Source: a virus
Virus record (IMG/VR): IMGVR_UViG_3300018429_000002
Coordinates: 7,578-71,577 of that record
DNA length: 64,000 nucleotides
Reading direction: 5' to 3' (one strand)
Under the pieces are notes generated by a model. That model did not search any database, had not been told where the DNA came from, and worked only from the letters and a program-made list of their open reading frames with translations. The position numbers and the translations under genes are program-made. Of this stretch, positions 35,887 through 62,820 are shown piece by piece (position 1 is the stretch's first letter; each line of letters opens with the position of its first letter).

Positions 35887-35960
35887 ATCCTCAACCTTTC
35901 CCAGACGGCGTTTCGCCGTCACGACCTAGCAGATTAGTATCCTTGGTTCTACTGCTTTGG

Positions 35961-36575
35961 TTAACTTAAATCCTGATTCTCTTCTTCTACTCCACCGGGG
36001 CGAGTAAGTAGAGCGCCGATTGCTTCCAACGCGTCTGAGTACGCAGAGTTGTCGTCACTGAACCGCACGCTGTTAGCTGCATTCAGAGCGGCTTGCACTC
36101 CTGCTATATAGTCAGCCGACAAAGATTCGGAGTCAGTGAGATGCGGAACAGAACCATCCGGCGTAGATGCTCGGTCGTTGCCGCCAAGGGCGGTCTGGGT
36201 ATGTAGTCTGTGAATCTCAGGAAGTCCGCAGTTACCGCACAGTTTCTTATCGTTTATCATCCATTCCGGAGGTTCAGGGGTGAACCCATGCGGAGCTATT
36301 TGGTTCACCGCTTCGCGGGTGTTGGTACGGGGATCGGAGGCGATCGCCCTCAGCGCTCCGTCATACCCATTGACAGATGCGCACACCCAGTCAGCCAATG
36401 ACGCGCCTTCCATGAACCACAGTCGTCTGCCGTTGGCCGACATAATGTCGTACTCGCCGGGTGCGGTTCGAACGGCGGTAAGCGGTAAGTAGTCATCAAA
36501 GGATTCGCCGTTTCGGTTAACCTCATTGTCTTGACGATCCGTGCTCGTGGGCTTACTGGGTTCTACATTCTTCAT
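35961..36575 (-). CDS. mosaic hypothetical protein containing two hairpin elements
   Basis: TQTALGGN peptide shared with ORF 62377..62820. Confidence 0.55.
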   Translation of the reverse strand: MKNVEPSKPTSTDRQDNEVNRNGESFDDYLPLTAVRTAPGEYDIMSANGRRLWFMEGASLADWVCASVNGYDGALRAIASDPRTNTREAVNQIAPHGFTPEPPEWMINDKKLCGNCGLPEIHRLHTQTALGGNDRASTPDGSVPHLTDSESLSADYIAGVQAALNAANSVRFSDDNSAYSDALEAIGALLTRPGGVEEENQDLS

Positions 36576-36587
36576 TTCCCCTAACTC

Positions 36588-37673
36588 CTAATCTCGATCT
36601 ACTGTTTTGGGGGACGGAGGCGCGGGTAGTGGCAGCCCCAAGGCGATTAGCAGAAATCTGAGATGATCACACGCGCTCTTATATCTAGCGTTTACTATCG
36701 ACGCTGACGTGGTAGGAGATCGGCTCCATAGGTCGAGGTCGAACTTAATACCTTCAAGTGACGCTTGCCACGCATCGGGCGGGGAGGAGTCTGCAAATGC
36801 TTCCATTGCCCATTCCAACCCCTTTAGTACGACTTCGCGCTGCTCTGGCGGTCGAAGGTCGGGAGCGCAGGCAATGAAATTAGCAGCGGCCCATAACACC
36901 GTTTCGAGGGTAAGATTCTCCGCATCCACAGCTAGATTGTCTTTGGAACCCTCAACCGCGTCCTTCCCCGGTACGGCGTCTTTACCTGAATTCTTCTGCT
37001 CCTGCTCTCCTCCTTCTTGACTGGGAGGGACTTGAGGGAATTCACATTTGCAACTGCAGTAGACGAGGCTTCCTCCTGGATCTCGACGTACCGTCGTGCA
37101 CTTGCCGAGAGAGTCACGACTATCCTTATCGCCACACTTTACACAGACAGGGGCTTGCTGCTCTTTAGCGTGATGGTGGCAACCACACCCATCGTGTGAA
37201 TCTCCGTTCCCTGCCCTGGCCCAGCATTCAGACGTGCAGGGAGTGACTTGCTGCTCTTGCTTGTCCTGAAGGGCGTCACGTAATTCATGGATCTCATCCT
37301 CAAGACCCTTTCGCGCCTCAAGGTATCCTCCGGTTAACAGTGTCCGGTATTCCCGACAGCCCACGTGGGGACAATCAGCGAACCTGTAGGTCTCCGGTGA
37401 GTGATACTGCCCGTGAAGCAGCACCGCAGCGGAATACAGTGCGTCTCGCATTTGAGACACGTTAGCGGCAATTTTCCGTCTGGGTTCCCACGGATGTTCC
37501 TGAGAACGCGGAGTTGGGGCTTGCTGCTCTGGAGGAAAACAGTGCGAGAGAATGATCACCTGAATCTCCGCTGCTGTTGCTTGCCAAGCCTCCCTATCGT
37601 CGGACGGAAAGGGCCGGGCAATAATCGCCTCAGCCGCCGCTCGTGCTAGTTCAATCTGTTGTGGTGTAGGCAT
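36588..37673 (-). CDS. mosaic hypothetical protein with Cys-rich segments
   Basis: Long ORF in the leftward operon; repeated EQQAP/EQQVTP linkers. Confidence 0.55.
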   Translation of the reverse strand: MPTPQQIELARAAAEAIIARPFPSDDREAWQATAAEIQVIILSHCFPPEQQAPTPRSQEHPWEPRRKIAANVSQMRDALYSAAVLLHGQYHSPETYRFADCPHVGCREYRTLLTGGYLEARKGLEDEIHELRDALQDKQEQQVTPCTSECWARAGNGDSHDGCGCHHHAKEQQAPVCVKCGDKDSRDSLGKCTTVRRDPGGSLVYCSCKCEFPQVPPSQEGGEQEQKNSGKDAVPGKDAVEGSKDNLAVDAENLTLETVLWAAANFIACAPDLRPPEQREVVLKGLEWAMEAFADSSPPDAWQASLEGIKFDLDLWSRSPTTSASIVNARYKSACDHLRFLLIALGLPLPAPPSPKTVDRD

Positions 37674-38162
37674 TACAATTCGCCCTTCGTATCAAGAAAG
37701 TCTTCAATGGTGGCCTGGATCTCGTTTGCTAGTCGCTCTGCTACATCGCGCTGGTCTTCCGTTATTAAGCCGAGAAACCACTTCTCATTGGTTAGAAACT
37801 CGTCCGCCAGAGCGCGGCATTTTACGTCATGTGTTTTCACAGTCACTTTCTTACCTCCGCTTGTTGTGGTGTTGGCATTACTTTTTCTTCTTTCGCTGAA
37901 TCTGACGATTGCCGATCTGATTCCAGCAAGTTCCGTGATAGTCGCCTTTCGGGCCCGAAACGTACTCGTCTCGAATCGTCTTACCGCAGACCTCGCATAC
38001 TAACCGGCTCTCTTGTGGCGTATTCATTACTTTTCCTTTGTTCCGAGATGGACCAGCCAGCGGTATTCGTCAGACGGCTGTTGTAATACCAGCGAAAAGT
38101 AATTCGATAGCGCCACTCTTCCGGTACCTCCCAGAGAAAATCAAAAATCTCAGATTCAATGC

Positions 38163-38693
38163 TCACGACTTCCCATCCTTTGCTGCCTCAATGTCAGGAA
38201 AATTTAGCCATGCAAATTCCCCAAAGAATTCCCTAGCTTTTACGTCGTATGCTCGGGCGGCCTCTTCTGCGGTTTTGAAATACCCTATGCAACTATATTT
38301 GTAGTTGTGGCGGATTTGCGCTGCCCAGCAGTATTTACGGCCAGCAAATGCAGGATTGTGCTTTCGGTAAACCCCTTTAAAACCCGAAGTGTTATCACTA
38401 CGCAAAGACCTATTTGCGGCGTTCCCACACCGAGTAGCCAACCGAAGATTGCTCCTACGGCAATCTAGTCCGTTTCTGTTTTTGTGGTCTACATGGAAGC
38501 CTGAAGGCGCGGAAAGTATAACTTGATGTAGTCTAATCATAGTCCGCTTGCCACTCATGGTCACAGTGCGAGATGCGTACCAAGTGCGGCCAGTACACGA
38601 AAGAGAAGCCTGCCACTTGTATTTAGCGACGCTCTCGTAATCCTCATCATCAACCAGCGCCACTTGACCTTTAGTTAGTTTAATTTCTTTCAC
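38163..38693 (-). CDS. HNH-AP2 homing endonuclease
   Basis: ALVDDEDY, VDHKNRNGLDCRRSNLR, SGFKGV, W.AQI, G.F.TAEEAARAYD. Confidence 0.92.
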   Translation of the reverse strand: MKEIKLTKGQVALVDDEDYESVAKYKWQASLSCTGRTWYASRTVTMSGKRTMIRLHQVILSAPSGFHVDHKNRNGLDCRRSNLRLATRCGNAANRSLRSDNTSGFKGVYRKHNPAFAGRKYCWAAQIRHNYKYSCIGYFKTAEEAARAYDVKAREFFGEFAWLNFPDIEAAKDGKS

Positions 38694-38727
38694 CTTGTTA
38701 TTACCTTGCTGGCTATATTGCTCATGA

Positions 38728-39090
38728 TTAGCTCCTCAAGTTGGCTAGTGCGGCCAGCGCAGCCCGTAACGCCTTCCGTTCTGTCCAGCCTTCGGGGAAG
38801 TCGCCCTTATGCCTATCGCAGGCTTCCCAGCGGGTTTCAGGGTCGTCCCATCTATCCCAGAGCGCAACGTTTTCACAGTCGTCACAGCCACCGGATTCAT
38901 CAACTACCAACGCTGCCAGCGTTACCGTCGACTTCCGCTCCTCTGCCCTCACCGATGCTTCCCTGGCATCCAGTGCGGCGACTATCGCGTCTCCAAGTTG
39001 CTTAACGTGTGACGTTGGGCCTATGTACCCTGCGGCTTTCGCAAAGTCGGCCAATAACCTGTTCACCGTTTTCTTGTTCTGGTCACTCAT
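38728..39090 (-). CDS. hypothetical protein
   Basis: Co-oriented in the leftward operon. Confidence 0.5.
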   Translation of the reverse strand: MSDQNKKTVNRLLADFAKAAGYIGPTSHVKQLGDAIVAALDAREASVRAEERKSTVTLAALVVDESGGCDDCENVALWDRWDDPETRWEACDRHKGDFPEGWTERKALRAALAALANLRS

Positions 39091-39095
39091 TTCAT

Positions 39096-39491
39096 TTACA
39101 CCCTTCCACTTCTCTCGTAATCCAATATCCTTGCCTCTAGTCGCTCCACCTCTGCCCTCGCCTCAGTAAGTTTGATAGACAGCGCCTCTGCCTTCGTTTC
39201 TAGTCGGACCGTGTGGGCGTGTTGATTCTTTCGTTCCGCAAGTATCTGGGCTTGGCTTTCTTCCAGTGCGGTTAATAAAAAGTCTATGTCCGCGGGAGCG
39301 TGAGCAATGAACTCCGAGTTGTCCCTGTCGAACGTATCTGCGTAGCCTGTGGCCGCAACCATCATTGAGCCTCGTCTTTGTACGGCCCACACGGTATGCC
39401 CTCTACCGCTCACGTGCTGGTATTCCCATGCACCTTCCGTAATCTTCGCCAGCCGTGCCTCTATCTCTGCTATCTGGTCTGATTTAGTCAT
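39096..39491 (-). CDS. Ead/Ea22-like protein
   Basis: IEARL...T.G.W and NSEFIAHAPADIDFLL motifs. Confidence 0.7.
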   Translation of the reverse strand: MTKSDQIAEIEARLAKITEGAWEYQHVSGRGHTVWAVQRRGSMMVAATGYADTFDRDNSEFIAHAPADIDFLLTALEESQAQILAERKNQHAHTVRLETKAEALSIKLTEARAEVERLEARILDYERSGRV

Positions 39492-39750
39492 TTCAAATCT
39501 TTCTTTTTAACTGGGTTTTGCAATCATTCCACCTTCGTGCTATCTCTGCGCTTCTCTTGAGCTACCTCAATTGCCTGCCCTAGCGCTATATGCACTTCCA
39601 GCGCGACGGGTAGTGTAAACATCGCATGCCCTTCATAGTCGTCGGTTATTACGTTAAAGAAATAGCCGTCAGTGGAAACCTCACAACGCGAGGCAATAAA
39701 CTCGGGCGACTGGTCTTTAACGATGATCTGATGAAACAGTATTCCTGCCA

Positions 39751-40203
39751 TTACGCTGCCTTCCTCGCTTCTTTCATTGCCAGTTCTCTGGATTTTGTTC
39801 CCAAAAGTTCCAACTCTCGGGCCATCTTTCTCCCTGCTACCGTGTGGTGAGCGTAGTCATGATGGTAAGGACATAAGCATGCACCGTTCGACTCGTCCCA
39901 CTTCAAATCCGGCCTTTGTGCTCTCGTGTGAATGTGATGAGCATGAATGTGTTTTGAGTAGTAGCCACACTTGGGCCATCGGCATGTAAAGTTGTCGTTC
40001 TCTCTTACCTTGGCGATCCAGTTGATCTCTACCTGGCTTCGGTGCCTTCGCTTTAGTGTTCCGCCTGATTGCGACTTACCAACACGCCGAAGGCGGAACG
40101 ACCGGGCAGATCGGGTGCAGGAGTTCTTTGCAGCATCAAGCCGAATTCTGAATCCAGTCCTCTTCATTGGCTTAGAGGATTGGGGCATGTAAGATCGTTT
40201 CAT
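39751..40203 (-). CDS. HNH endonuclease
   Basis: V.E.DNFTC...C, HAHHI, NG.CLC..HH. Confidence 0.8.
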   Translation of the reverse strand: MKRSYMPQSSKPMKRTGFRIRLDAAKNSCTRSARSFRLRRVGKSQSGGTLKRRHRSQVEINWIAKVRENDNFTCRWPKCGYYSKHIHAHHIHTRAQRPDLKWDESNGACLCPYHHDYAHHTVAGRKMARELELLGTKSRELAMKEARKAA

Positions 40204-40247
40204 TCAGTTCCTTTTGTGCAGACGCCGGACATCTCAGGCGTGGCGGG

Positions 40248-40988
40248 TTAGTTGGTGCCGCTCGCAACGAGCGTGTCGGTATCGACCTTCTCGCCTATCG
40301 TTACCATCTCTCCCGCGACCCGGTCGCCCTCTTGCGGGATTCTAAAGATGTAAACGGTGTCTCTAGGGCTGAATTCTGATTTCTCGCCCAGGCTAACCGG
40401 GAAGACGCACGTCACGGCTCGCCGTGGAGACAGCTTGCGATAGAGCTGAGCGGAATGCTCGGCGATAAGGTAGAAGATTTCCTCTACTTTCAAATCAACG
40501 AATTCTTTGACTACAAAGCGCTTCTGGCTTTCCTCGATATCACGCGCAACCGAGCGCTCAATCTCCGCAAAGAATCCCCAGACATCAAATACGTCGGCGG
40601 TAGCCTCCAGCGTGGCTCGGCTGACGACGTTCGTCATCGACGACGAACAGTTCTCGCCCTGATGTGCCCAGCCAATGACGTACTGCCGATAGCGAGCGCC
40701 AAACGCCTCAAGGTTTCCAGGGACCAGCGCTATCGACTCAGAGTTGTTTATTACCATTCGAATCTCGGTGATCATCGAAAGGGATGATTGATTCACAACT
40801 ACGGAGTGCCCAAACCATTGCAGGGCATCTGCGGGGTCGGCGGAGAATCGTTCGATAGCTGTGGCGATGTATTCGCGCAGTTCAGATTCACGTCCATCGA
40901 GGCTGCGGTACGTATCTTTCAGAACGTCCTCGAATTCACGGGCGACTACGACTGAATTGCTAAGAGAATATGGCGAATTGTGTATCAT
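40248..40988 (-). CDS. hypothetical protein bracketed by inverted hairpin elements
   Basis: 246-aa ORF with AAAGG RBS. Confidence 0.65.
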   Translation of the reverse strand: MIHNSPYSLSNSVVVAREFEDVLKDTYRSLDGRESELREYIATAIERFSADPADALQWFGHSVVVNQSSLSMITEIRMVINNSESIALVPGNLEAFGARYRQYVIGWAHQGENCSSSMTNVVSRATLEATADVFDVWGFFAEIERSVARDIEESQKRFVVKEFVDLKVEEIFYLIAEHSAQLYRKLSPRRAVTCVFPVSLGEKSEFSPRDTVYIFRIPQEGDRVAGEMVTIGEKVDTDTLVASGTN

Positions 40989-41310
40989 TGTTTTACCTTT
41001 CCAAGTCCCGCGTTGCGCGGGCTACGACCGTTTACGTTCTCCGTTGGGTTCTTTGTATTCATTCCCCTGAAGTCTTTGGATTCTGTTCCCCTACTAGACT
41101 AAGAGCGTCTGAGACCATCTGGCCCCGGCGCATCGCTGTAGATATGCCAATGCGTAACGTCCCGTCGCCCTGACATTGGCTCGCGTTCGATTTCGCATTG
41201 AACCCGCCACGGTCGCGGAGTAGCCTTATCTTCTGTTTCGCTCATCACTTCCCTTTCGCTCTCAAATAAAATCTTTCAACTTAGACGCCTGCCATTTGAG
41301 GCGCGGCGGG

Positions 41311-41772
41311 CTAGGTCGTGCCGCCTTCGGCGCGTTGGCGAGCGATCTCAAGCGCTGCCCTGCATATCGCCTCTGGCGCAGACGGGCAAAACTCCGACTC
41401 AACGTACTTGCCAGTCAGCGGGTAAATCACGGCCCACCACGATTTTCTGTCTGAGCTTGCGTTAGCGCTAACCGTGCATCCCTGCTTCTGAAGGCACTCC
41501 ACCACCTGCCAAGCGGCGGAGATGTCGGACGAGAAATAAGGAACAACGTTCTGCTGGTTTCTATCCCAAGGCGTGTTCGGCAAATAATAGAGCACTCCGC
41601 TGATCGCTCGATTATCCGTGGGGTGCGGCGCGACGGGGGCGCGAGTAAACCCCATGACGCGCTCTGCAATGGCCGCGTCTAACTCTCGACCTACCAAGCC
41701 CGACTGTGCGACCGCTTCGGCGCCACTCTCAGACGATCCGCTGGTAGGTTCTACTTTCTCATTATTTGACAT
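41311..41772 (-). CDS. phage ABA-sandwich-like protein
   Basis: GRELDAAIAERVMG, PYFSSDISAAWQVVE, APEAICRAAL. Confidence 0.75.
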   Translation of the reverse strand: MSNNEKVEPTSGSSESGAEAVAQSGLVGRELDAAIAERVMGFTRAPVAPHPTDNRAISGVLYYLPNTPWDRNQQNVVPYFSSDISAAWQVVECLQKQGCTVSANASSDRKSWWAVIYPLTGKYVESEFCPSAPEAICRAALEIARQRAEGGTT

Positions 41773-42211
41773 CTGTGGCCTCTTTCTCTCGACGCCGGTA
41801 GAGACGAGGAGAGAGCACCGCTTTCTCTCCTTCTACCCCTCTAGCTATTCGCTGAAGGATAAGCCTATGACTGACTTGCGACACATCGGCCCACTCAACG
41901 GCTAAGCGGGTAACGCCCTTAATGGTAATCGACACATTGCTCCGCATGTTTCGTGTTTGCTGTGTTCTAGTGGCCCAGCGGCAGTTGCCGGGCTCGTAAT
42001 TCCCCTCGTTGTCAACGCGATCAAGAGAGTGGGAACGAGTTGGTCGCGGCCCCATATCGCCAAGGAATGCCGGGAAAGAAGCAGTCCACCGTGCACAAAC
42101 GGTAATCCCTCTGGCTCCGTACCTTTGATAGCTACTATGGTTCGGGTTATCACACCGACCGCGCATGGCTAGCCAGATTTTGTATTCAGGCAAACCCGAT
42201 AAATTATTCAT
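41762..42211 (-). CDS. HNH-like endonuclease
   Basis: W.AMR.RC.NP..SY.RYG.RGITVC.RW and SLDRVDN.GNYEPGNCRWAT. Confidence 0.85.
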   Translation of the reverse strand: MNNLSGLPEYKIWLAMRGRCDNPNHSSYQRYGARGITVCARWTASFPAFLGDMGPRPTRSHSLDRVDNEGNYEPGNCRWATRTQQTRNMRSNVSITIKGVTRLAVEWADVSQVSHRLILQRIARGVEGEKAVLSPRLYRRREKEATDVK

Positions 42212-43092
42212 TTGATCTATCCCTCTCTATCGAATTGCTTGCGCCAGAATTGCCTGAGTTCGTTGCGCTTCTCTCAACTCTTCCATTCGTTCAAGGTACT
42301 GAGTGCGATATTGTGAGCCTGCTACTTCCGAGTCTCTATCGTCTCGCACCCGCATCTCGCGTTGATAGAATTTTTCCTCTTCCCGGATGCAGGCTGTGCA
42401 GATGTCGTCCCCTGGTTCCGGCTCGTCGCCTTGGCTGATAGCGTTGGCGTTTACACAGCCTTGGCTTAGATAGCCGGGGCAAATCCGCTCTGTGTGCGAT
42501 TCGGTTAGCGATTGAAGCCTCGGGGCAACTAAGGCAAAGGCCTTTTCTTCTTGGTGTGCGGTCCATGCTTCGTCTGCCGTACTTCGATTGTTTATATTTC
42601 TCATAGTTTCCCTTCGTTCCATTCGCTGCTCATGATGTCTAGCGTTTCCCTGGCGAGCGTTCCGCCAAGTTCCTGCCACCGAGAGAATTCTTTTTGCCAT
42701 CTCCAAGGCCTCTCCAAATAGGCAAGTACTTCGTCTATGTCGGATACCTGCCCGCACTCGTGGAGCACGTGGGCGAATGCAATGATTTCATCGTATCGGC
42801 CCATGTCTGCGATCTTGCTCATTTCTTTACTCCGTGCTTTTCTGGATTCGTACATTTGGCCCAGTTGGGCAACTCTTCTGCTAGATACTGATTGCAGGCT
42901 GGACATCGCTCCCAGCGTTTGGCCCACAGCAGCCTGTTTCTGTGAGCCACAATTAGTTGACTGGGCGACAAGTCATTTACGGTGATAAGGCGGTAGTCCA
43001 TTTCTATTCCCTCTCTCGTCCTCAAAATCTCAATCAGTCTGTTCAGACGTCTGACCGGGGAGGCGCAGGGTCGAAGCGCTCGCGCTTTAGTG

Positions 43093-43452
43093 TTATGGCC
43101 CCACCTCGCCCGCCTGAACTATTCGACGCGCAAACTCAAGCGCTCGATTCCATACGGCATCGGTAGGGAATTTATTGCCGACGCGCTCCGCGTCTAGCGC
43201 TTCCAGAATGCGGGCCTTTTCCGCCAGCATTCCTTCAGTCACCGCATCGTATGCATTGCGCGAAACGTCATCAGCGATGGATTTATCCACCTCAAGACGC
43301 AGCGCCATTAACGAGCGGTTTAACTTCAGTAGCGCGGGGCGGGGGGCTTCGGCTATCAAGCCCGACTGTGCGCCCGCTTCGGCGCCCTTCTCAGACGATC
43401 CGCTAGAAGGGTTCTGGTTTTCATTACTTAAATTCTGATCGTTCGTTTCCAT
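43093..43452 (-). CDS. hypothetical protein whose N-terminus is encoded by a hairpin element
   Basis: SGSSE.GAEA.AQSGL shared with 41311..41772; AAGGAG RBS. Confidence 0.6.
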   Translation of the reverse strand: METNDQNLSNENQNPSSGSSEKGAEAGAQSGLIAEAPRPALLKLNRSLMALRLEVDKSIADDVSRNAYDAVTEGMLAEKARILEALDAERVGNKFPTDAVWNRALEFARRIVQAGEVGP

Positions 43453-43484
43453 AACTAATCTCCTTCAAATCTCAATCTGTTTGT

Positions 43485-43799
43485 TCAGACGCCTTCTAGG
43501 GCAGCGCGGATTAAGTCCAGGACTCTATTGTTTGGGCTGTCGATGCGCTTCCCGCCGCGTCCGGGGATGCCGTTAAACTCTTCGGAGATCACAGACTGAG
43601 CGGCAATCAATGCTCCCACTAGCCTCTCGTGTTTATTGACCGCCAACTTCAGCGCGTAGGCTCTTTCCTCCGTCACGCAAGTCGCTACAGGTTCAGCGTT
43701 CCAGTCGAAGATGGCCCATGAAGCGCCTGGCACGGTTTGCTGGACGTTGAGCGGAGTAGCAAGCGCGTGCATGACAATATTTTCTATTTTCGTTCCCAT
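43485..43799 (-). CDS. hypothetical protein
   Basis: AAGGAG RBS; start region nearly identical to that of 43093..43452. Confidence 0.6.
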   Translation of the reverse strand: MGTKIENIVMHALATPLNVQQTVPGASWAIFDWNAEPVATCVTEERAYALKLAVNKHERLVGALIAAQSVISEEFNGIPGRGGKRIDSPNNRVLDLIRAALEGV

Positions 43800-44387
43800 A
43801 ACTAAATCTCCTTATGCTGTCGTGAGCTAGTCCAAATACTTATTGGCGATGGGCTGTGCGATCTTGGCAAACTGCCGCGCCGCCCCGATAAGAGCGTTGC
43901 GCTCTCGCTGCGAATATTCATTCTCTAGAACGTAGCCAAGCCAGCCTGCTAGCCGCTCCATCTCTTCGAGCGCTCCGGTGACAGAATCAAAGCGATCGTC
44001 TTCAGGTCTAGCGCGTCCGGCATGTTCTCGAATTAACGCTTTTTTCTTATCCAATTGTGTATGGCATTACCTTGCTCCTTATGTTTATGCTGCCATCTGG
44101 TCTACCAAATTAAATCTCAATCAGCTTGTTCAGACGCTCGCCCGTTAAGGCGTAGGGCCTAAGCGCTCGCGCTTGTTTCGGGCTCGCACTGTTCTGGGAA
44201 AAGCAGTACGTGATTCTGTCGCGGGTCGCCATCGTCGGATCCAAACGGAAAGTGCGAAGCCGCGCTCTCCGGTCGTCCGTCCATTTGCACCCACGCGCCG
44301 TCGTCGCTGAAGCGTAGTCGCTTAACCTCGCCCGCTACACCGACAATCGGACTGTCGGCGTCAATTACTCGAACTCTTTGACCGTCT

Positions 44388-44615
44388 CTAAATCCATGCC
44401 ATCTGGTCTAACAGCGCTTCGTATGCCTTCTCACCTTTGCGCACCATGAATTCTTCAAGTAGGTAATTCCGGGTTATGTTCTCAGCCCTGCTTATCTCGC
44501 CCCCGCCGATTGTCACAACCGCGTCAGCTATCTGTTCTGTGCTCAGAGCTGCGACTGCTGCCGTCATTGCGTTGTGCGTGCTGCGTGATGCGGCGATTGT
44601 TGTATTGGTGTTCAT
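44388..44615 (-). CDS. hypothetical protein
   Basis: TAAGGA RBS. Confidence 0.55.
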   Translation of the reverse strand: MNTNTTIAASRSTHNAMTAAVAALSTEQIADAVVTIGGGEISRAENITRNYLLEEFMVRKGEKAYEALLDQMAWI

Positions 44616-44625
44616 GGTTGATTCC

Positions 44626-45174
44626 TTATGCTGCTCTCAGTTTTACGTGTTCTTTGCTGTGGCATTTCTTGCATAGCCATTCGACTTCTAATGGTTTGCT
44701 GTAGTCGTGATGGTGCGCGTGTAGGGACTCACGTCTTTCCGGTGACGTTCCGCACAGTTGACATCGCGCTGGCTTGTCCAACTTGCCCGCCTTAACCGCA
44801 CGGCGTACCGCTTGCCTTGCCCGATACTTATCCCTATTCATAAGTTGATCGACCCGCTGATGCGAGACGCCCATGATGGACGCTATCTCTTTGCGCGTAC
44901 CGCTCGGCAGTCTCATGTCGCTTCGCATTGGGGTTCCCGTAAGAACCGTTAAGGGGTCTCCATGTGTCCTCATTCGGGCGCGGTGCTTCGCGCAATAGCC
45001 CCGACAGTTCCCGTTACGATCACACCCGTCAACGGAGCACTTCTCTGGGACTATGGGGGTCAGTGCCCCGGCCCGCGCCACGCGCCGATAGTGTGTAGCG
45101 CAAAGACCTCTAGCGGTGTACGGCTTCTCGCATGCGGGCTTACTACATTTGCGATTTGGTATTTGTCTTCCCAC
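44626..45174 (-). CDS. zinc-finger/HNH-like protein, first gene of the leftward early operon
   Basis: Two CS...C......GLC..H repeats; HAHH.DYSKPLEVEWLC..CH. Confidence 0.75.
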   Translation of the reverse strand: MGRQIPNRKCSKPACEKPYTARGLCATHYRRVARAGALTPIVPEKCSVDGCDRNGNCRGYCAKHRARMRTHGDPLTVLTGTPMRSDMRLPSGTRKEIASIMGVSHQRVDQLMNRDKYRARQAVRRAVKAGKLDKPARCQLCGTSPERRESLHAHHHDYSKPLEVEWLCKKCHSKEHVKLRAA

Positions 45175-45181
45175 GTCCAGC

Positions 45182-45222
45182 AGTATACCGAGGGGAAACC
45201 ATTAAGTCAACCCTTGGGATAC
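45182..45222 (-). promoter_or_regulatory. leftward early promoter with operator
   Basis: TTGACT-N17-TATACT; GTATCCCAAGGGTTGAC (minus strand) matches GTTTCCCAAGGGTTGAC at 45766-45782 in 16 of 17 positions. Confidence 0.8.
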
Positions 45223-45267
45223 TTTTATTTCATAAAAGATTTCAGGGCCGGAGCGGGTGAGACGGAA

Positions 45268-52454: not shown

Positions 52455-53477
52455 ATGGTAGCCACGGCAGCTAAAGCAAAAACAGAACACCCGATACTTT
52501 TCAGCGGGCCAATGGTGCGCGCAATTCTGGAAGGCCGGAAGACTCAGACGCGGCGCGTCGTGAAGATTCCGCTACACGGCGAAGAGGATGCGTCATGGGT
52601 GAAATCGATCCATCAAGACGGTGGCGGTAACTGGATCGCGTGGTCTACCGACGCGCCCGCAACAGCGGAATTCACAAAGAAGGCATATCCCAATGGCGAA
52701 GGGTTTAAGTGTCCTTACGGGCAAGTCGGTGACCGTCTTTGGGTACGTGAGACTTTTGTACTCAACCGTGACGCCGACAAGAAGGGACAGCCACCATGCT
52801 TTTACCGCGCCGACTGGAACGCTGTGGGATACGAGAATAGTAGCCCATCAAAACCGTCGATCTTCATGCCGCGCAATTTCTCTCGCATCACGTTGGAAAT
52901 CACGAACGTTCGAGTTGGGCGATTGCAGGAGATAAGCCAAGCCGACGCGATTGCGGAAGGACTTGATCAGGGTTTATGCGCCCATGTGTTCAAGCAATCC
53001 GCTGGCAAGGTGGAACGGTCTAATGCCTACTGGCTTGAGCACTCAGAAACAAGCGAGGAAGAGAGCGGAGACAACGGGAATTATTGCCGAGCGTGCGCCC
53101 TAAAGCAGCAGAAGCGCAAAGGTAAAAAGTGGTTGCTTATGGGAGACGGAGGTTCTGCGATGGAATCTGACGGCCCCGCCTTCTGTGGTTGCGGAACCCC
53201 GTTGCTGCTATCGCTTACTGAGTATGGAATCGAGCGAGAACTAAGAATTGAGGACGATCCCAACGGGAAGGAGCCTGAGCATTTCCCGGTGAGCGGTATG
53301 GATGCCCGAATTGTCGAGATGATCGCGGACGGGATCGGAGATTTGCGTGATGAGCACCTCGGGCGTTTGGCGCAAATCGGATTCGCGACTGGTTGGAATT
53401 CACTGAACGCCAAGCGCGGCTACTCATGGGAATCAAATCCGTGGGTGTGGGCCATCACGTTCAAGCGGCTGGGATAG
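52455..53477 (+). CDS. ASCH/PUA-like phage protein with Cys-containing insertion
   Basis: PILFSGPMVRAILEGRKTQTRR, CPYG.VGDRLWVRET, PSIFMPR..SRITLEI, W.SNPWVW. Confidence 0.8.
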   Translation: MVATAAKAKTEHPILFSGPMVRAILEGRKTQTRRVVKIPLHGEEDASWVKSIHQDGGGNWIAWSTDAPATAEFTKKAYPNGEGFKCPYGQVGDRLWVRETFVLNRDADKKGQPPCFYRADWNAVGYENSSPSKPSIFMPRNFSRITLEITNVRVGRLQEISQADAIAEGLDQGLCAHVFKQSAGKVERSNAYWLEHSETSEEESGDNGNYCRACALKQQKRKGKKWLLMGDGGSAMESDGPAFCGCGTPLLLSLTEYGIERELRIEDDPNGKEPEHFPVSGMDARIVEMIADGIGDLRDEHLGRLAQIGFATGWNSLNAKRGYSWESNPWVWAITFKRLG

Positions 53478-53706
53478 AAACCATGAACCACTGGTCCACA
53501 CCAGGGCTACCGCCCGCGCCAGTGTCGGCAAAGACGCACGGCGATCCGAGTACGTGGACAATGTTTGAGTGGATACGTTTCAACGAGTGGGCCAAGTCGC
53601 TTGAGCGGTACGGGCCAACGAAGAAACGCATCCGCAACCGTACCAACACCGCGAAGCGGGTACGACCTAGATGATGGGCCAGACGGGCGAGCGTCTAAAT
53701 TAAATC

Positions 53707-55442: not shown

Positions 55443-55688
55443 ATGAGCGCTCGATTTCAAATCGTTGACTCTGATATGGACGACCTGATCCCGCTTCACG
55501 TCGGGGCCGCAAAACTTGGTTTGGATGCGTCCACGATTCGCAAGCGGAAGGCAGGCACGGAGAAGCTAACCCTTATTCGGCAGGGTCGAAATCTCTACAT
55601 GGTGCTTGGGGAAGTGATTGCGCACCGGCAGAAAATGACAGAAGATGCGCGGCGTAAGAACAGCCCTATCCGGTTGGTGACTGAATGA
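55443..55688 (+). CDS. excisionase-like winged HTH (putative)
   Basis: AAKLGLDASTIRK; overlaps the integrase start. Confidence 0.6.
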   Translation: MSARFQIVDSDMDDLIPLHVGAAKLGLDASTIRKRKAGTEKLTLIRQGRNLYMVLGEVIAHRQKMTEDARRKNSPIRLVTE

Positions 55689-56911
55689 TTAAGAAATTCT
55701 TCTCAAATCGAAATCGCCCTGGCTGGAAGTACGACTCTCGTCTGAAGAAATACTATTCGTGGGGCTTTGAAATGTATCTGGCCTCTGGCCGGCGGAAACG
55801 TGAGACTGGGTTTCTAAATCGGGCCGATGTTGAGTCGGTTGTTGTTCGGATTCGTCAACTGGAAAAGGAGATGCGATATGGAGTCACAATGTCCGTGGAA
55901 GCGCCCACTTTGGAAGAGGTGTCCGCGAAGAAGCTCACGCTCACGGCAAGCCGCAGGGAGCAGGTGCGAGCGAAGAGAGTTCTAGCCGTGTTCCGCAGGG
56001 TTGCCCAGGTCAAACGAGTGACAGAACTGAAAACCGAGCACCTTCAAAGATTCGTAGACTTCCGTCGCAAGGAAGTACAACCGCAAAGCGTTGACCGGGA
56101 GTTGAATATTATTTCTGGGATGCTCCGTGCTGCCGTAGTTCACTTCCCTGCTTTGTCTGACTGGATCGTTCCTCGCATTCCTCGCCCTAAGCACTCAAAG
56201 CGCCGCAGAGAGCGAGTAATAAGCATTCAGGAAGTCGCCAAGGTCTTGACCTGGCTCTACGCGCCGCAGGAAGGCGAGACGGTAAGGCAATCCGCGAAGC
56301 GCCGGAATGTGGGCCATGTATTCCGAGTCGCATTACTGACGGGGGCACGCAAGGGCGAACTGTGCAAGTTACGGTGGAGTCAAGTCGATTGGGATGCGGG
56401 GGTCGTCCAGATCATTGGAACCAAGACTGAAAACAGATCCGAACAGACCTCCCGCTACATTGCTATCGATCGAATGTTGGAAGTGATTCTTAGGGAGCGG
56501 CAAGCGGTCGCGGGCGATTTTGTGTTTACGCGGGCAGGCGGAGAGGTAACGCACTATTACAAGATTCTCAAGGAAGCCTGCGAAGCCTGCGGCGTAGCCT
56601 ACGGCAAAGACGTGGCCGGGGGATTTGTGACTCACGACGCAAGGCACACGGCGGTTACAAGAATGCTTCGGGCGGGCATCGACCTGGCGACCATCGGATC
56701 CATCACCGGGCACAATGACAAGACGATGATTTTACGTTACGGCCACGCATCAACCGAGAGCCAAAAGCGAGCAATCGGAGTGCTTGAAAAGTTTGCTGGG
56801 TTTGACGCACTCGGAGACGGTTTGGAGACGGCTATAGATAGCGCGCCGATTTACTTAGGAAATCAGCAGGGTATGGTGCCGGAGGTCGGAACGAAACGCC
56901 GAAAAGCCTAA
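55685..56911 (+). CDS. int: tyrosine integrase
   Basis: LLTGARKGEL (R), TK (K), HDARH (HxxR), TGH and RY catalytic motifs. Confidence 0.93.
   Translation: MIKKFFSNRNRPGWKYDSRLKKYYSWGFEMYLASGRRKRETGFLNRADVESVVVRIRQLEKEMRYGVTMSVEAPTLEEVSAKKLTLTASRREQVRAKRVLAVFRRVAQVKRVTELKTEHLQRFVDFRRKEVQPQSVDRELNIISGMLRAAVVHFPALSDWIVPRIPRPKHSKRRRERVISIQEVAKVLTWLYAPQEGETVRQSAKRRNVGHVFRVALLTGARKGELCKLRWSQVDWDAGVVQIIGTKTENRSEQTSRYIAIDRMLEVILRERQAVAGDFVFTRAGGEVTHYYKILKEACEACGVAYGKDVAGGFVTHDARHTAVTRMLRAGIDLATIGSITGHNDKTMILRYGHASTESQKRAIGVLEKFAGFDALGDGLETAIDSAPIYLGNQQGMVPEVGTKRRKA
56874..56890 (-). other. attP core matching a tRNA 3' end (tRNA-Leu-like acceptor)
   Basis: Minus strand reads TCCGACCTCCGGCACCA (T-stem, acceptor, CCA); GGAGACGG arm-type repeats at ~56813, ~56824 and ~57009. 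Confidence 0.75.
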
Positions 56912-57892: not shown

Positions 57893-58369
57893 ATGAATTC
57901 TGTAAATGAGGAACAGAACTTTTCTAATGTAGCTACCAGTAAATCCGCCTCGGATGGCGTGTCGGTATCAGGCTTGTCGGGCCGCGAACTAGATGCGGCA
58001 GTTGCGGAGCGTGTGATGGGGTGGGTTTGGTGGGCCACGACCTTGCGGTTCTCTGCTGAGCGACGCAGGGCGCTATTCCAACCCGAACTAAAGAATCCAG
58101 ATTATCAACTAGCAGATGGATCGGAAGAGCCGTTTACAGGAGACAACTATTTTATATCTCATTACTCGTCCAGTATCGCCGCCGCTTTTGAGATGCAATC
58201 GCGGATTTCAGACTTAGGGCTTGCGCAAGAATTCGCGGTCGCGCTTGGGCAGATACTTCTTCGTGGCAACACTCAGCCAATCACTGCGTTTGATTACGCG
58301 AACGCAACCGCAGAGCAGAGATGTCGCGCAGCTCTCCAAGCAGTTGAAAAGGATCATGAATCAAGTTAG
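57893..58369 (+). CDS. phage ABA-sandwich-like protein (paralogue of 41311..41772)
   Basis: GRELDAAVAERVMGW, YSSSIAAAF, EQRCRAAL. Confidence 0.7.
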   Translation: MNSVNEEQNFSNVATSKSASDGVSVSGLSGRELDAAVAERVMGWVWWATTLRFSAERRRALFQPELKNPDYQLADGSEEPFTGDNYFISHYSSSIAAAFEMQSRISDLGLAQEFAVALGQILLRGNTQPITAFDYANATAEQRCRAALQAVEKDHESS

Positions 58370-58438
58370 ACGCTCGCCACTTCAGTAGTAGGGGGCTAGG
58401 TCGTACCGGGCAAGGCCCGTGTTGGGGAGGCTGTGGAT

Positions 58439-58981
58439 ATGGCGGGACGATTACCAAAATTAGAGCATGCGTTCCCGGTCACGACAGACGCCGAGGGACG
58501 AAGACTTTGCCGTTGGGATCAGGGCGTTATTCCTGCCGGGCGACGAACGTTTTGCAAGCAGAGTTGTGTTCATCAAGTTTCGATGCGGACTAGTCCTGAC
58601 TATCTTCGCAGGCTTGTTTTCAAACGAGACCGGGGATTCTGTGCTGCCTGTGGATGTGATACGGGGAAGATTCGCCGCGTTTCGGAGTTCGCGGCTACTG
58701 CTTATCGAGACCTAGGCACCGCGATTGGGCAACGAGGAAAGTATTACATGTGGGACTGGGCGGCGACGTGGGCTGTATTTGTCAAGATGGGGTTTCATCA
58801 CCGAGTAGAGGCCGCAGAGTGGGAAGCTGATCACGTCGTGGAAGTAGTGCGCGGGGGCGATTCGTGCCTAGAAAATATGCAAACACTCTGCATACCGTGC
58901 CACAAGGGAAAAACGAAACAACTTGCAGGGGATCGAGCACGGGAACGGCGCGACGAAAAGAGAAGGTTATTAGTTGCGTAA
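58439..58981 (+). CDS. HNH endonuclease
   Basis: VFKRD.G.C..CG, WEADH...V.GG...LEN.QTLC..CH..KT. Confidence 0.88.
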   Translation: MAGRLPKLEHAFPVTTDAEGRRLCRWDQGVIPAGRRTFCKQSCVHQVSMRTSPDYLRRLVFKRDRGFCAACGCDTGKIRRVSEFAATAYRDLGTAIGQRGKYYMWDWAATWAVFVKMGFHHRVEAAEWEADHVVEVVRGGDSCLENMQTLCIPCHKGKTKQLAGDRARERRDEKRRLLVA

Positions 58982-59056
58982 AAAGGAAGCGGGCCGGATC
59001 GCCGTAGACGACGCCGACCCATTGGAAGGGAACCACGAGCAACCAAAGGATAACAG

Positions 59057-59587
59057 ATGAAGGAAATTAAGAATTTAACAAACCAAAGCCAAGAACAACC
59101 TAGCGCGAGTGCTAGTAACCGCGCGTATCGCGCGCCCGCTTCGGAGCGAAAGGTGCACGTCCATACTGATCACTGTCCGCATGGCTGTGCCGAAGAGTAT
59201 CAACGTACCGATCTGGAGAAGGTGGTAACGGAAGGGAGAACGTGGGGTAGCGAGATCATCGCGGTTCACTGCATCGGCGAATATGCCTTTGTTGAATACG
59301 CGGATCGCGATTTCTCAAGCGGCCCTAACTACGGCAAGGAAACTGGCGCCCACTGCTTCAGTCAGTTTATCAACGGGCACTCGCTCTCCCATTACGCACA
59401 CTCACTCGACGGAGCATTAGTGGAGGCCATCGCCTACAAGCGCGACGGGTGCAACTCCCAAGCGGGATATCTATTCATGAAGGCCACGCGGCCACGGGAC
59501 GGAAGCGACTGCGATCCCGAAACCCGTAGGCATTACTACGTTAATCAAGAGTCCAACAGCCGCCTTGCGGCGCACGAAGGGAGATAG
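59057..59587 (+). CDS. hypothetical protein
   Basis: AAAGGA RBS; hairpin elements at both ends. Confidence 0.6.
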   Translation: MKEIKNLTNQSQEQPSASASNRAYRAPASERKVHVHTDHCPHGCAEEYQRTDLEKVVTEGRTWGSEIIAVHCIGEYAFVEYADRDFSSGPNYGKETGAHCFSQFINGHSLSHYAHSLDGALVEAIAYKRDGCNSQAGYLFMKATRPRDGSDCDPETRRHYYVNQESNSRLAAHEGR

Positions 59588-59833
59588 ATGGGAGTTAAAC
59601 AAGAAATGGAAGCTGCGGCGATAGCGGGCATCAAGTGCCCTAGTTGCGACGCCGAGCCGGGGGCCAAGTGTCACTACACAGGACGACACTTGGACGGCAG
59701 TCCGGCGTTTCCTAACTCGGTGGTAAAGACGCATCAACGGCGGATGAGTGCGTTCGTGGCGACGCGGGTGAGCTTCACCGACCGGACTGACGCAACCAAC
59801 GCACCAACACGTCGCTTCGACGGTACGATCTAG
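59588..59833 (+). CDS. small zinc-finger protein
   Basis: CPSC.A.PG.KC...H..R motif. Confidence 0.6.
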   Translation: MGVKQEMEAAAIAGIKCPSCDAEPGAKCHYTGRHLDGSPAFPNSVVKTHQRRMSAFVATRVSFTDRTDATNAPTRRFDGTI

Positions 59834-60454
59834 CAGATGAGGAGGAGGGTTTTATGCCTCGATTAGCAAATGGATTGAAATTCTTTGGGGTACTACTTCT
59901 AATTTTATTTATGGCTACTAGTAGAAGGAAGGAGTGGCCGGATTAGGATTCAAGTTAATACGCAGAAGCAGGGCTACGGGTTGAAATTAAAGACAGAAAG
60001 GTTGTGGTTGATGAGTCAAATTCGATTTGGGAAGTGCGACGTTGTTGCGCAAGAAATACCCGAAAGTGATTGCGATGAGTGTGGGATGCCGATCGGGGGT
60101 CGCGGCTGGTTTGTGGAATTAGACTTTCGCGGAGCGGGGGAGACTGTACAGCTTGGCGCAAACCTTTACTGCTCAGAAACCTGCGCTGAAATAGTTGCTG
60201 AGAGCATTCGCAAGACGCTCCCAGAATGCGAGGACGAGGACGCCTTACCAACAGCCGGAGGCGAACGACCGTGATGATGGTCTATGTGGTTCTTTGCTTC
60301 ATTACTTAGAAAAGGGACTTTGATTGAAAGATTCTAAATTTCCAACGCCACAAAGGGGCCACTGCCGCAACTGTGAACTAAGCGGACTGTTCTGTTATTG
60401 CGGCTGCCGTGCATGTGCTGAGGTACGAAAGCGGGAACGAGAGGCGAAGAAGGC

Positions 60455-60925: not shown

Positions 60926-61109
60926 TGCCCAAACCAACTCAGCAGACAATCCTCAAGGCGCTCCATGATCTAATTGAGGCGGTACGTGCCAGGGAAGTCA
61001 GAGGCACGCTATCAAGATCGGGATTATTAGAAGTCACAGAGCGAGCGTACATAGTTTTAGAGCGGGAGAAGGCAGAGGAAGAGGAAGCTAAACCTGAAAG
61101 GACTACCAC

Positions 61110-62156
61110 ATGAGCGCTGTTTTAAAAGCGGTTCCCGAAATTGCGGACAAGTCGGAAGCAGTCAGGCAACGGCGCGTTGGCAAGGCGCTAACCAACGTCA
61201 TCACGCAGATCAATAAGCTGGAAGGAATTGAGCATGAAGTTATTGCGCTGTTGCCTTCCCTTTCTGACGATCAGGTCATGGAGACGCGTAACTCTGCTCG
61301 ATTGCTGTACGCCTCTGCCTGGAAGATAGAGATCGCGTGCGATGCTGAGATATGGGACCGAACCACCAAGGCGGTCAACGGTCGTGGAAATAAGGACGAG
61401 GGTGAAAAAGGGATACTGGCAGCGGTGAACAAGCGGGCGCACGACCTGGGGTGCAGCGGGCGCACGGTTTACGAGAACGCTCGCATCCACAGACGGTTCA
61501 AGAAAAAGATTGAAACCACTTGCAATATTTTAGATGACAAGGGCTTTTTCCAAGCGGCACTTGCTTCTGAAGACCCGGACGTGGCAATCGAGGAGTTTGC
61601 GAAGATGCGAAGCGAGAACCCGTTTTTCAGGGTTGCCGATGCTTGGCGTTGGGTAAGGGCAGCGCCGGAAGGCCCGAAGGAAGACGAGACGAAAGTCCTG
61701 GCGACACCCGAGGCGCAAGCGTGGCTGTCGGGGCTACATACTTCCCTCCTATCACACATCCCTACCGTACCGGAGAGTGCAGCGTTTCTAAAGCACATGA
61801 TCCAGGCGATTGACGGCGTAGTGCTCCATCAATCGGAAAGAACCGTAGAGGGCGATTGTCGCGTAATCATGGAGGCCATAGAAGAGACGGGCGGGCTATC
61901 AGGTGATGACCTGTATGACTGGCAGATAGCTCACTTCTATTTCATGAGCGAGGATCAGTTAAAGGCCCGCTTGCTGACAATGGTGGCAAATAAAGAACTG
62001 ATTGAGGAAGACGCAGGGAAGGCCGGGAAGCAGGCGAAGCGGCGCGGTAAGCTGCCACAGTGGTATGAGCCTTATTACGCCAAGCGGCAGAAGTACGATC
62101 CGTGCAAAAAGTGTGGCGAGTGGCACAGAGACCCGGAAGACTGCATGGAAGATTAA
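61110..62156 (+). CDS. hypothetical protein with possible HTH
   Basis: 348-aa ORF; AHDLGCSGRTVYEN HTH-like segment; C-terminal CxxC...H..C. Confidence 0.65.
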   Translation: MSAVLKAVPEIADKSEAVRQRRVGKALTNVITQINKLEGIEHEVIALLPSLSDDQVMETRNSARLLYASAWKIEIACDAEIWDRTTKAVNGRGNKDEGEKGILAAVNKRAHDLGCSGRTVYENARIHRRFKKKIETTCNILDDKGFFQAALASEDPDVAIEEFAKMRSENPFFRVADAWRWVRAAPEGPKEDETKVLATPEAQAWLSGLHTSLLSHIPTVPESAAFLKHMIQAIDGVVLHQSERTVEGDCRVIMEAIEETGGLSGDDLYDWQIAHFYFMSEDQLKARLLTMVANKELIEEDAGKAGKQAKRRGKLPQWYEPYYAKRQKYDPCKKCGEWHRDPEDCMED

Positions 62157-62376
62157 AAACCTGATTGACGTGTAGGGGGAGGTGGAGAAGGTGACGAACA
62201 GCGCGGGAACATGCGAGCACTGTGGAGGTGAGATTCCCTATCACAGAGGCCGCGCATTGACTATTTGTCAGACGTGCCGCATCAGGGGACACAAGGGTGC
62301 CACGGAAGAATGCGCCGAATGCGAACGGTTAGACAGGGATGATGTCCCTACGGAGACGAAACAGGAGTAAGAGTTT

Positions 62377-62820
62377 ATGGAAAATGAAGCAAAGAACCCT
62401 TCTGACGAACCATCACTGAAGGGCGGCGAAGCGCACGCTGTAGCGGGCTTGGTGCCGAGGGAACTACAACGCTTGCTTGCGTGTCCTCATAGCATGTTCA
62501 GATCGGATTGCCTTGGCTGCTGGTGCGGGCATGCTGCAAGACTGGAAGGCCAACTTAGAAAGTTGGAAGAGTCAACCGCGCTTCCAATTCGGGAGCGAAT
62601 CGAGAAAGCAGTGCGCGAGCAAATGGAGCACTGCTATCAAGTCTACAAGGGCGTACCGCCCACGGTTGAGGATTGGGTTGGCGGTGCGCTCCATTACGTC
62701 ATGTGGGGCATCGAGCGCGATTTACCGTTGGCAGCCACGCTCGACACCCAGACCGCCCTTGGCGGCAACGAACTGGCAGATCCGCCGGGTGGTTCTTTGC
62801 AGCATAACTTGAATTCTTAG
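62377..62820 (+). CDS. hypothetical protein bracketed by inverted hairpin elements
   Basis: N- and C-terminal peptides derive from the repeat family. Confidence 0.55.
   Translation: MENEAKNPSDEPSLKGGEAHAVAGLVPRELQRLLACPHSMFRSDCLGCWCGHAARLEGQLRKLEESTALPIRERIEKAVREQMEHCYQVYKGVPPTVEDWVGGALHYVMWGIERDLPLAATLDTQTALGGNELADPPGGSLQHNLNS

Follow-up and report, generated by a model that had tools for sequence, protein, structure and literature searches.

Short composite repeats before accessory genes are known from T4-type phages, whose PeSLs, in the passages of the published accounts that deal with them, consist of an AT-rich part, a stable stem-loop, a Shine-Dalgarno (SD) sequence, and a start codon and lie in plastic regions before accessory open reading frames (ORFs) (PMC2839356). 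The same accounts describe a consensus σ70 promoter within the PeSLs and their direct orientation, because of which recombination between them yields mini-circles and deletions; small genes of unknown function lie beside the elements, which were proposed to be homology patches for modular shuffling (PMC2839356, PMC4122927). For the mosaicism of lambdoid phages, short conserved boundary sequences were proposed that let homologous recombination join unrelated modules, and, in the part of that account that treats the proposal, such sequences are said not to be findable at most mosaic boundaries (PMC3029335). Here, we analyzed a 64,000-nucleotide (nt) stretch of viral DNA (called the window; bases 7578 to 71577 of IMG/VR record IMGVR_UViG_3300018429_000002, with coordinates below counted from its first letter), which derives from a tailed temperate phage and contains a family of hairpin repeats at the ends of its accessory genes. 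Like the PeSLs, as far as the cited passages characterize them, these repeats are short and composite and cluster where a phage genome is plastic and holds its accessory genes. We tentatively favor reading them as a PeSL-like gene-boundary module, in which the hairpins may cap individual messages in the early operons and the flanks may serve as homology patches for gene exchange.

The repeat has a common core form in which GGTCGT and two further bases precede a perfect GC-rich stem of 3 to 6 bp with a 3-nt loop, followed by TGTTGG. The whole element is modular and measures about 60 to 100 bp including its outer modules. An initial annotation, made from the letters alone, had listed 13 copies with covarying stems and none in the virion module, and all 13 were recovered with their positions, hexamers, stems, and loops confirmed. 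A covariance model built from these copies (R1), with which both strands of the window were searched unfiltered, scored them at 29.5 to 49.8 bits; the next-best match, at 36293 to 36329 (+), reached 16.6 bits and represents a decayed 14th copy, and the remainder scored 10.2 bits or less. When a further model (R2) was run on the whole 71,577-bp genome, 14 matches were obtained between genome positions 43,473 and 70,356 (window 35,896 to 62,779) and none in the virion or late part; the copies are thus confined to the early, nonstructural part of the genome, in line with the annotation. R1 gave no match at an E value of ≤1 in 80 unrelated phage loci (1,289,273 bases). In the 13 copies, which were chosen partly for their perfect stems, 93.8% of 64 stem cells were paired, compared to 56% in shuffles and 32 to 49% in slid registers, and all five stem pairs changed on both sides, which bears out the covariation. 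In an alignment of 25 copies from four genomes, which was fitted to the model, 92.2% of 116 cells were paired, and the pairs were almost purely Watson-Crick, with a single G-U among the 116 cells. A loose-mismatch scan with the flanks only returned 292 matches versus 302 ± 26 in shuffles and is uninformative at such stringency. The repeat family is real and statistically solid. Narrow literature searches found no published description of it, and, as far as these searches go, the family is undescribed.

The stems differ between copies and the flanks are fixed. The left hexamer has the consensus GGTYGT across genomes, and the hexamer flanks are equally conserved in copies of either orientation. 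The spacing between the two hexamers ranges from 11 to 21 bp, and the total core length ranges from 23 to 36 nt. The two flanks of a single copy (GGTYGT and TGTTGG) are mirror images that cannot pair, so that pairing is limited to the short central stem, and folding of the hairpin sets the two hexamers at a constant distance regardless of stem length.

The position of the copies relative to genes follows a rule. Five copies are in sense and eight in antisense orientation relative to the local genes. Four of the sense copies end 12 to 13 nt before an ATG, with a ribosome binding site (RBS) in between, and the fifth (40079) is an in-frame part of an HNH gene. In seven antisense copies, a convergent ORF has its stop codon within or right beside the element, and several of them provide the TAG or TAA through the bases that adjoin the left hexamer on its outer side. 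For 11 of 13 copies, a gene start or stop lies close to the TGTTGG side compared to 14% for random placements (binomial probability of about 3e-8), a statistic that rests on our own crude ORF calls and that agrees with the annotated rule of sense copies at 5′ ends and antisense copies at 3′ ends. Among the antisense copies, the overlap with ORF ends involves three different frames, which argues that the conservation is not at the protein level. Protein-level conservation was rejected on this ground and also because ORFs 35961-36575 and 62377-62820 are alike only in the 28 residues that the element encodes; paralogous gene fragments were rejected because similarity between copies extends over no more than 60 nt. 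Set against the PeSLs as presented in the passages cited, the layout of stem-loop, SD sequence, and start codon is found in 4 of the 13 copies here and in 12 copies across four genomes, but not in the antisense copies. In further contrast, the elements lack a σ70 promoter, carry fixed six-letter flanks around a variable hairpin, and occur in temperate phages of the lambdoid type, and about half of them are inverted on gene 3′ ends, so that some genes are bracketed by inverted copies. The boundary sequences proposed for lambdoid phages, to the extent that the cited account sets them out, likewise lie at gene or module junctions; here, the junctions carry a defined, structured, multicopy family that spans genomes.

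The family was also detected by covariance model in three other phages, the check that the initial annotation had proposed for related genomes. All three are complete metagenomic records with terminal repeats. G001 (62,364 bp; primase-helicase 79% identical) and G002 (73,087 bp; 64% identical) were reached via the primase-helicase, and G006 (64,206 bp) was reached via the DNA pattern. With the phage studied here, G001 shares the replication module only, G002 the primase-helicase and one other ORF, and G006 three to four ORFs; no protein is common to all four element-bearing genomes. Five copies were found in G001, two in G002, and eight model matches (five of them strong) in G006; their left hexamer is most often GGTTGT, and their loops measure 3 to 7 nt. 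The 12 sense copies over the four genomes end 12 to 23 nt before an ATG, 9 of them at 12 to 14 nt, and strings joining the SD sequence to the start, such as GAGGATATG or GGAGGCT-ATG, are common to different genomes. Antisense copies are located on stop codons or no more than about 15 nt from them. Brackets of one sense and one antisense copy surround three single genes in G006 (a RusA-like gene, a DNA methyltransferase gene, and a 147-amino-acid ORF), and in this phage and G006 together 5 of the 12 sense copies are paired with an antisense copy at the other end of one and the same ORF. There is no homology between the bracketed genes of different genomes. The core of copy 53643 recurs with one base different in G002 and in very similar form in G006, each time beside unrelated genes, and blastn found no more than three matches between the window and G006, among them the element at 53633 to 53685. 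An element common to genomes that share almost no genes is as expected of a gene-exchange seam. The 80 unrelated phage loci in which R1 found no element encode relatives of the cargo gene 52455-53477, which indicates that the element belongs to the genome lineage and not to the cargo. An element that is lineage specific and often the sole similarity between two genomes fits homology patches of the boundary-sequence kind, as these are outlined in the account cited (PMC3029335).

Searches of wider collections added little. Of three pattern scans of the viral collection, the first returned chance matches only (10 of 10 without the hairpin); among the at least 112 matches listed in the second, two were true (G002 and G006), and among the 18 loci in the third, only those of G006 were. 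A metagenome scan with the primase-helicase yielded one contig of 1,975 bp and a genome scan yielded none, and neither megablast nor blastn found a close relative among cultured-phage records.

The genome setting bears on how the copies may act. The record has 123-bp direct terminal repeats, and terminase, portal, and major head and tail proteins are encoded in the left 35 kb of the window. A cI-like gene (45268-45726, −) and a cro-like gene (45819-46055, +) diverge at 45.7 to 45.8 kb, and the switch region between them (45740-45806) contains a rightward TTGACA-17-TATAAA promoter of textbook σ70 consensus, which indicates that the host uses ordinary σ70 promoters. The switch region also holds palindromic operator-like words of the TTTCCCCTTAGGAAA type. 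Leftward early genes extend from the switch down to 35.66 kb; rightward early genes reach the end of the record and include those for an exonuclease, an O-like initiator, a primase-helicase, an integrase, RusA, and HNH nucleases, and Ead/Ea22 is also encoded in the early region of this lambdoid-type genome. A σ70 promoter scan of positions 35500 to 46500 found three promoter-like sites, all away from copies, and a terminator scan of the same interval found eight terminator-like sites, none of which is a copy. For the copies at 52 to 63 kb, ungapped upstream profiles showed no −10/−35 pair. The stem is followed by TGTTGG in one direction and by ACGACC in the other, with a U tract in neither. 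Taken together, the scan of the leftward arm and the sequences of the copies rule out a σ70 promoter or an intrinsic terminator. ECF-sigma, sigma-54, sigma-32, and archaeal TATA-type promoters were rejected on spacing, judged by eye against their usual geometries. Rfam searches returned no match at gathering score in the whole window and, at an E value of ≤5 in positions 35500 to 63000, one unrelated snoRNA-model match away from any copy, which rules out a known RNA family, including the ribozymes, CRISPR repeats, and nut-like elements that Rfam covers, and is the outcome of a check proposed in the initial annotation. Since no σ70-like promoter was found at the copies, they lie inside operon transcripts, and for copies that are promoterless and inside long operons the simplest role of the hairpin is at the RNA level.

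The adjacent gene could instead be controlled by a host or phage factor (such as an activator, a roadblock, or an alternative sigma factor) for which the copies are DNA binding sites or promoter-like signals, with antisense copies driving or blocking antisense transcription at gene 3′ ends. We regard this as improbable. The flanks are indeed conserved as DNA words in both orientations, the full upstream organization is kept in sense and antisense copies alike, and one copy in G001 stands before a single ORF that faces the opposite way from its neighbors and would need its own promoter. However, no recognizable −35/−10 pair stands at a fixed distance, although the phage's own switch promoter is a textbook σ70 promoter, and a hexamer spacing that varies from 11 to 21 bp would be hard to accommodate for a double-strand binder unless the hairpin extrudes. 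Furthermore, eight antisense promoters reading into gene 3′ ends would be unusual, and no candidate factor is common to the four genomes.

Under the gene-boundary reading that we favor, the hairpins in the long early operons that start from the cI/cro-type switch would fold in RNA. Sense copies would cap the 5′ end of the messages of single accessory genes and bring with them the RBS and the start codon, and antisense copies on the stop codon would cap the 3′ end. Cleavage might occur in the AT-rich outer parts, and the capping would then insulate or stabilize each message. At the DNA level, the conserved flanks would provide the only homology between otherwise unrelated neighboring genes or genomes, and general recombination between copies could swap, delete, or invert single genes, with in-frame copies, relics, solitary copies, and bracketed genes as the remains. 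A gene between inverted copies would be turned around by recombination yet keep a sense copy in front of it, and between direct copies, genes would be deleted or duplicated; either event would produce relics and solitary copies like those seen.

Several observations weigh against this reading. The flanks are equally conserved in both orientations, in which the RNA sequences differ, and a role in RNA alone is therefore insufficient to account for them. The near-pure Watson-Crick stems (1 G-U in 116 cells) point to a constraint on both strands or on DNA. As no U tract follows the hairpin in either orientation, the copies are not standard terminators. The PeSLs, as portrayed in the cited passages, are in direct orientation and carry a σ70 promoter, and the elements here show neither feature. 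Finally, the copies coincide with the edges of shared modules in a suggestive manner: in G001, the left edge of the module common to both phages falls exactly on a sense copy (42962 to 43007) at the start of the exonuclease gene, and in this phage the right edge of the shared module is one small ORF before copy 52416. With one exact and one near coincidence among four edges, the association is not significant.

The copies themselves show how the positional rule is realized. In the leftward arm, the sense copy at 35900 to 35953 (−; R1 score, 41.9 bits) combines a GAACC upstream module with the core GGTCGT-GA-CGGCG-AAA-CGCCG-TCTGGG and is followed 13 nt past the core, beyond an RBS, by ATG 35886. 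The antisense copy at 36150 to 36199 (+; copy 36173; 44.7 bits) lies inside ORF 35961-36575 and shares 60 nt at 83% identity with copy 62747. The decayed copy at 36293 to 36329 has the hairpin CCGC-TTC-GCGG, as in copy 53643, and an eroded left hexamer (26.7 bits with R2 after its inclusion). The sense copy at 40079 to 40127 (−; 41.4 bits) lies in frame in the N-terminal coding region of HNH gene 39751-40203. The antisense copy at 40218 to 40279 (+; copy 40251; 34.0 bits) has an upstream module of AGACGCC and an extra hairpin and supplies the last codons and the stop of gene 40248-40988; its partner around that gene is the sense copy at 41001 to 41052 (−; 32.8 bits), with ATG 40988 12 nt past the core. 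The antisense copy at 41281 to 41338 (+; copy 41314; 36.5 bits) has an upstream module of TTAGACGCC and a hairpin, and the Phage_ABA_S gene 41311-41772 draws its last codons and its TAG stop from this copy. Two degenerate antisense copies fall below model detection. One (43033-43099, +) consists of a TTCAGACG module, GGTCGA, the hairpin AAGCG-CTCG-CGCTT, and TGTTAT, with the stop of gene 43093-43452 in its inner end, and the other (44118-44175, +) shares with it the outer motif and that hairpin.

In the rightward arm, the sense copy at 52391 to 52442 (+; copy 52416) scores best (49.8 bits) and is followed by ATG 52455 12 nt past the core. The antisense copy at 53643 to 53698 (−; 38.9 bits) lies 165 nt past gene 52455-53477 and has on its own strand an SD-like stretch and ATG 53631, which opens a 56-amino-acid ORF of uncertain reality. 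This ORF (53461-53631, −), with the SD-like GGTTGCGG, starts right after the copy and occupies the 165-nt gap; because it fills the gap, copy 53643 may in fact belong, in sense orientation, to a small reversed gene. The sense copy at 58366 to 58425 (+; copy 58399; 46.8 bits) has an upstream module of TTAGACGC, with the TAG of which gene 57893-58369 stops, and the ATG of an HNH gene follows 13 nt past the copy. Antisense copies lie at 59553 to 59596 (−; 33.2 bits), on the 3′ end of ORF 59057-59587 and with the RBS and start of the next ORF (59588) on the outer side; at 59804 to 59853 (−; 44.5 bits), supplying the last codons and TAG stop of ORF 59588-59833; and at 60248 to 60293 (−; 29.5 bits), on the 3′ end of ORF 59981-60274 and with the shortest stem (3 bp). 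The last copy, at 62747 to 62796 (−; antisense; 41.0 bits), lies near the 3′ end of ORF 62377-62820, which reads through it and stops 47 nt later.

According to the initial annotation, six genes were each enclosed by an inverted pair. This held for gene 40248-40988, where both copies (41001 on the minus and 40251 on the plus strand) are model detectable, and for gene 52455-53477 (52416, +, and 53643, −), with the 165-nt gap at the 3′ side. The pair formed by 58399 (+) and 59553 (−) encloses two ORFs, 58433-58981 and 59057-59587. The rest proved to be one-ended or degenerate: for genes 41311-41772, 59057-59587, and 62377-62820, the 3′ end alone is marked by a copy, and gene 43093-43452 has its degenerate 3′ copy alone plus an upstream-module fragment at the 5′ side. 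In this phage, 7 of 13 copies have no partner.

These inverted pairs had led to the proposal that two opposed copies form a split, attC-like folded site through which the phage integrase, host XerCD, or an integron integrase excises, inverts, or exchanges single genes. Integron attC sites have complementary RYYYAAC and GTTRRRY boxes that pair within one site, lie in direct orientation, and move with the cassette, and the pdif modules of Acinetobacter are flanked by inverted sites. The repeats resemble both as short imperfect palindromes that delimit single promoterless accessory genes. They differ from them in having no integron integrase, no complementary R″/R′ boxes, no direct arrangement, no 11-6-11 Xer-type core, and loops of 3 nt, and, unlike attC, the element here does not move with its cargo gene. 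The part of the proposal that stands is the link of the repeat to accessory-gene ends, together with the inverted pairs of G006; the recombinase model behind it we consider very unlikely. It is favored by a frequency of inverted pairs around single genes that exceeds expectation (5 of 12 sense copies in this phage and G006), by the Watson-Crick stems, by a tyrosine recombinase gene about 330 nt from one inverted pair in G006, and by the RusA junction resolvase and several HNH nucleases encoded nearby. Nevertheless, most copies are solitary, the flanks are mirror images and not complementary, the arrays are not direct, and relatives of the cargo are encoded in 80 loci without the element. The four-way junction suggested for opposed copies fared no better: the complementarity follows trivially from inverted orientation, and in the search for long-range pairing of adjacent antisense and sense copies, which was rejected, the hexamers paired in two of three folds with energies like those of shuffles (z scores of −0.76 to −1.06). 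By inspection, the central loop is 3 nt (3 to 7 nt in relatives), the stem arms are unrelated, and there are no 11-bp arms around a 6- to 8-bp center as in Xer/dif sites. Unrelated stems and 3-nt loops leave no common overlap region of 6 to 8 bp, which tyrosine recombinases need. Nor does the integrase named in the proposal (55685-56911) match an integron-type recombinase: it is a generic tyrosine recombinase with a best NCBIfam match of 58.3 bits versus a cutoff of 220, XerC/XerD models gave 43 bits versus cutoffs of about 330, and no integron-integrase model passed. G001 and G002 gave no tblastn match to this integrase, other recombinases not having been searched for. Within the rightward early operon, the integrase gene occupies a middle position, neither beside the repressor gene nor at a genome end.

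A related possibility is a folded-DNA landing or exchange site, in which the extruded hairpin would join the two hexamers for recognition by a nuclease or recombinase, candidates being a phage HNH enzyme, one of whose genes itself contains an in-frame copy, or a host Xer-type enzyme. Insertion, inversion, and exchange of single promoterless genes between inverted copies would be the result. The fixed hexamer distance upon folding suggests that a folded nucleic acid is recognized, and the symmetry between orientations suggests that this is DNA; even so, we hold such a site to be highly unlikely. Four HNH or HNH-like nuclease genes are present in the early region (38163-38693, 39751-40203, 41762-42211, and 58433-58981). 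Both of the HNH genes near copies that were detected by Pfam/PHROGs (39751-40203 and 58433-58981) carry a sense copy at the 5′ end, and neither the third (38163-38693) nor the fourth, HNH-like gene (41762-42211) has a sense copy directly at it. The 149-amino-acid ORF 41762-42211 (PHROG HNH family) is among the very few ORFs common with G002 and G006. In the HNH gene 39751-40203 (−), about residues 17 to 42 are encoded by a complete in-frame repeat element. The stretch RIRLDAAKN, encoded by the middle module of the element, is conserved in the three closest homologues (62 to 63% identity), which come from other assemblies, and this indicates that this HNH lineage has retained the entire element in frame. 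At the element position, about 20 residues are missing from more distant HNH homologues, and a viral scan with the HNH alignment returned distant relatives only (≤43% identity). Copies in frame within ORFs are also seen in ORF 35961-36575 and in ORF 33302-34567 of G001.

Intragenic copies of this kind are familiar from mobile repeats. REP/BIME/REPIN sequences and IS200/IS605-derived PATEs form chromosomal families of high copy number whose stems are conserved and which have a dedicated Y1 (HUH) transposase, with recognition considered to act on the folded single strand. The repeats described here are similar in being short interspersed hairpins that occur in both orientations at gene ends, with subfamilies, relics, and occasional intragenic copies. 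They could accordingly be a selfish miniature mobile repeat, comparable to REP/BIME, PATE, or Rickettsia palindromic elements, that is copied by an enzyme acting on a folded single strand; the conserved flanks would be candidate recognition or cleavage sites of that enzyme, and insertion would take place at gene boundaries and occasionally in genes. Of the alternatives, this one is the most probable, though we think it unlikely. Subfamilies with identical hairpins occur in unrelated contexts (36173, 52416, and 62747; 40079 and 41314; 53643 with the relic at 36300 and G002 position 14219), and near-identical cores lie beside nonhomologous genes in three genomes. Relics, degenerate copies, in-frame copies inside ORFs, and the absence of about 20 residues from distant HNH homologues at the element site all fit insertion, and both the hexamer distance fixed by folding and the conservation of flanks in both orientations would suit a copying enzyme. 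On the other hand, the stems vary and the flanks are fixed here, the repeat was seen in four phage genomes only, and no Y1-type enzyme or other transposase-like gene was found among the ORFs scanned with Pfam/PHROGs (the great majority of the early-region ORFs of this phage plus nine from G001 and G006, with G002 excluded), nor is any protein common to the four genomes. A scan for one subfamily pattern (4-bp stem, TTC loop) over 185,579 species, with one genome each, produced 39 random-looking single matches in unrelated taxa, none with the outer flanks; for this one pattern, it gave no sign of a high-copy host repeat and so lends no support to a host chromosomal repeat. Moreover, the near-constant 12 to 14 nt to start codons and the shared strings of SD sequence and start suggest a selected function, and the copies have diverged down to the motif level only.

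Outside the core, the elements are built from modules. CTA or CAC immediately precedes the left hexamer in most copies. The middle module is of one of two types, either (A/G)AACC 17 to 19 nt upstream of the left hexamer (in many cases in the form ATGCTGCAAAGAACC) or TTAGACGC with another small hairpin behind it. About 55 to 65 nt upstream of the left hexamer is an outer motif, AT rich and of the AAGATTTTTCAG type. The full order of outer motif, middle module, and core is present in sense and antisense copies, and the modules combine freely, with the same flanks around different hairpins and vice versa. The word TYAGACG occurs 30 times in the genome versus 12.2 ± 3.7 times in shuffles, an enrichment of about 2.5-fold. 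A longer conserved RNA fold over the upstream 75 nt was rejected, since the minimum-energy folds of 20 copies share the core hairpin alone. Fragments of the upstream modules without a core were seen at other gene ends (43473-43500, +; 58998-59040; and 62328-62350); they include TTCAGACGCC, TAGACGACGCC with GAACCAC, and GTTAGAC with a small hairpin. At 45233 to 45246 (+), just downstream of the cI-like gene, the outer motif AAAGATTTCAGGG stands alone without a core. The Phage_ABA_S paralogues 41311-41772 (−) and 57893-58369 (+) each end in a module of the TTAGACGC type, in antisense and sense orientation, respectively, and the stop codon of the second paralogue is the TAG within TTAGAC.

Phage genomes are mosaic, and conserved sequences at their seams are rarely found; here, a structured repeat lies at many accessory-gene boundaries in four genomes. 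If the hairpins act as RNA caps, they would represent a means by which phages tune single genes within long antiterminated operons. If a folded-DNA exchange site should prove true, it would amount to an integron-like gene-cassette system native to the early regions of temperate phages. If the copies are exchange points, they would offer a testable mechanism for single-gene modularity in temperate phages, comparable to the PeSLs of T4-type phages, and could serve as a marker for accessory and antidefense cargo in metagenomic phages.

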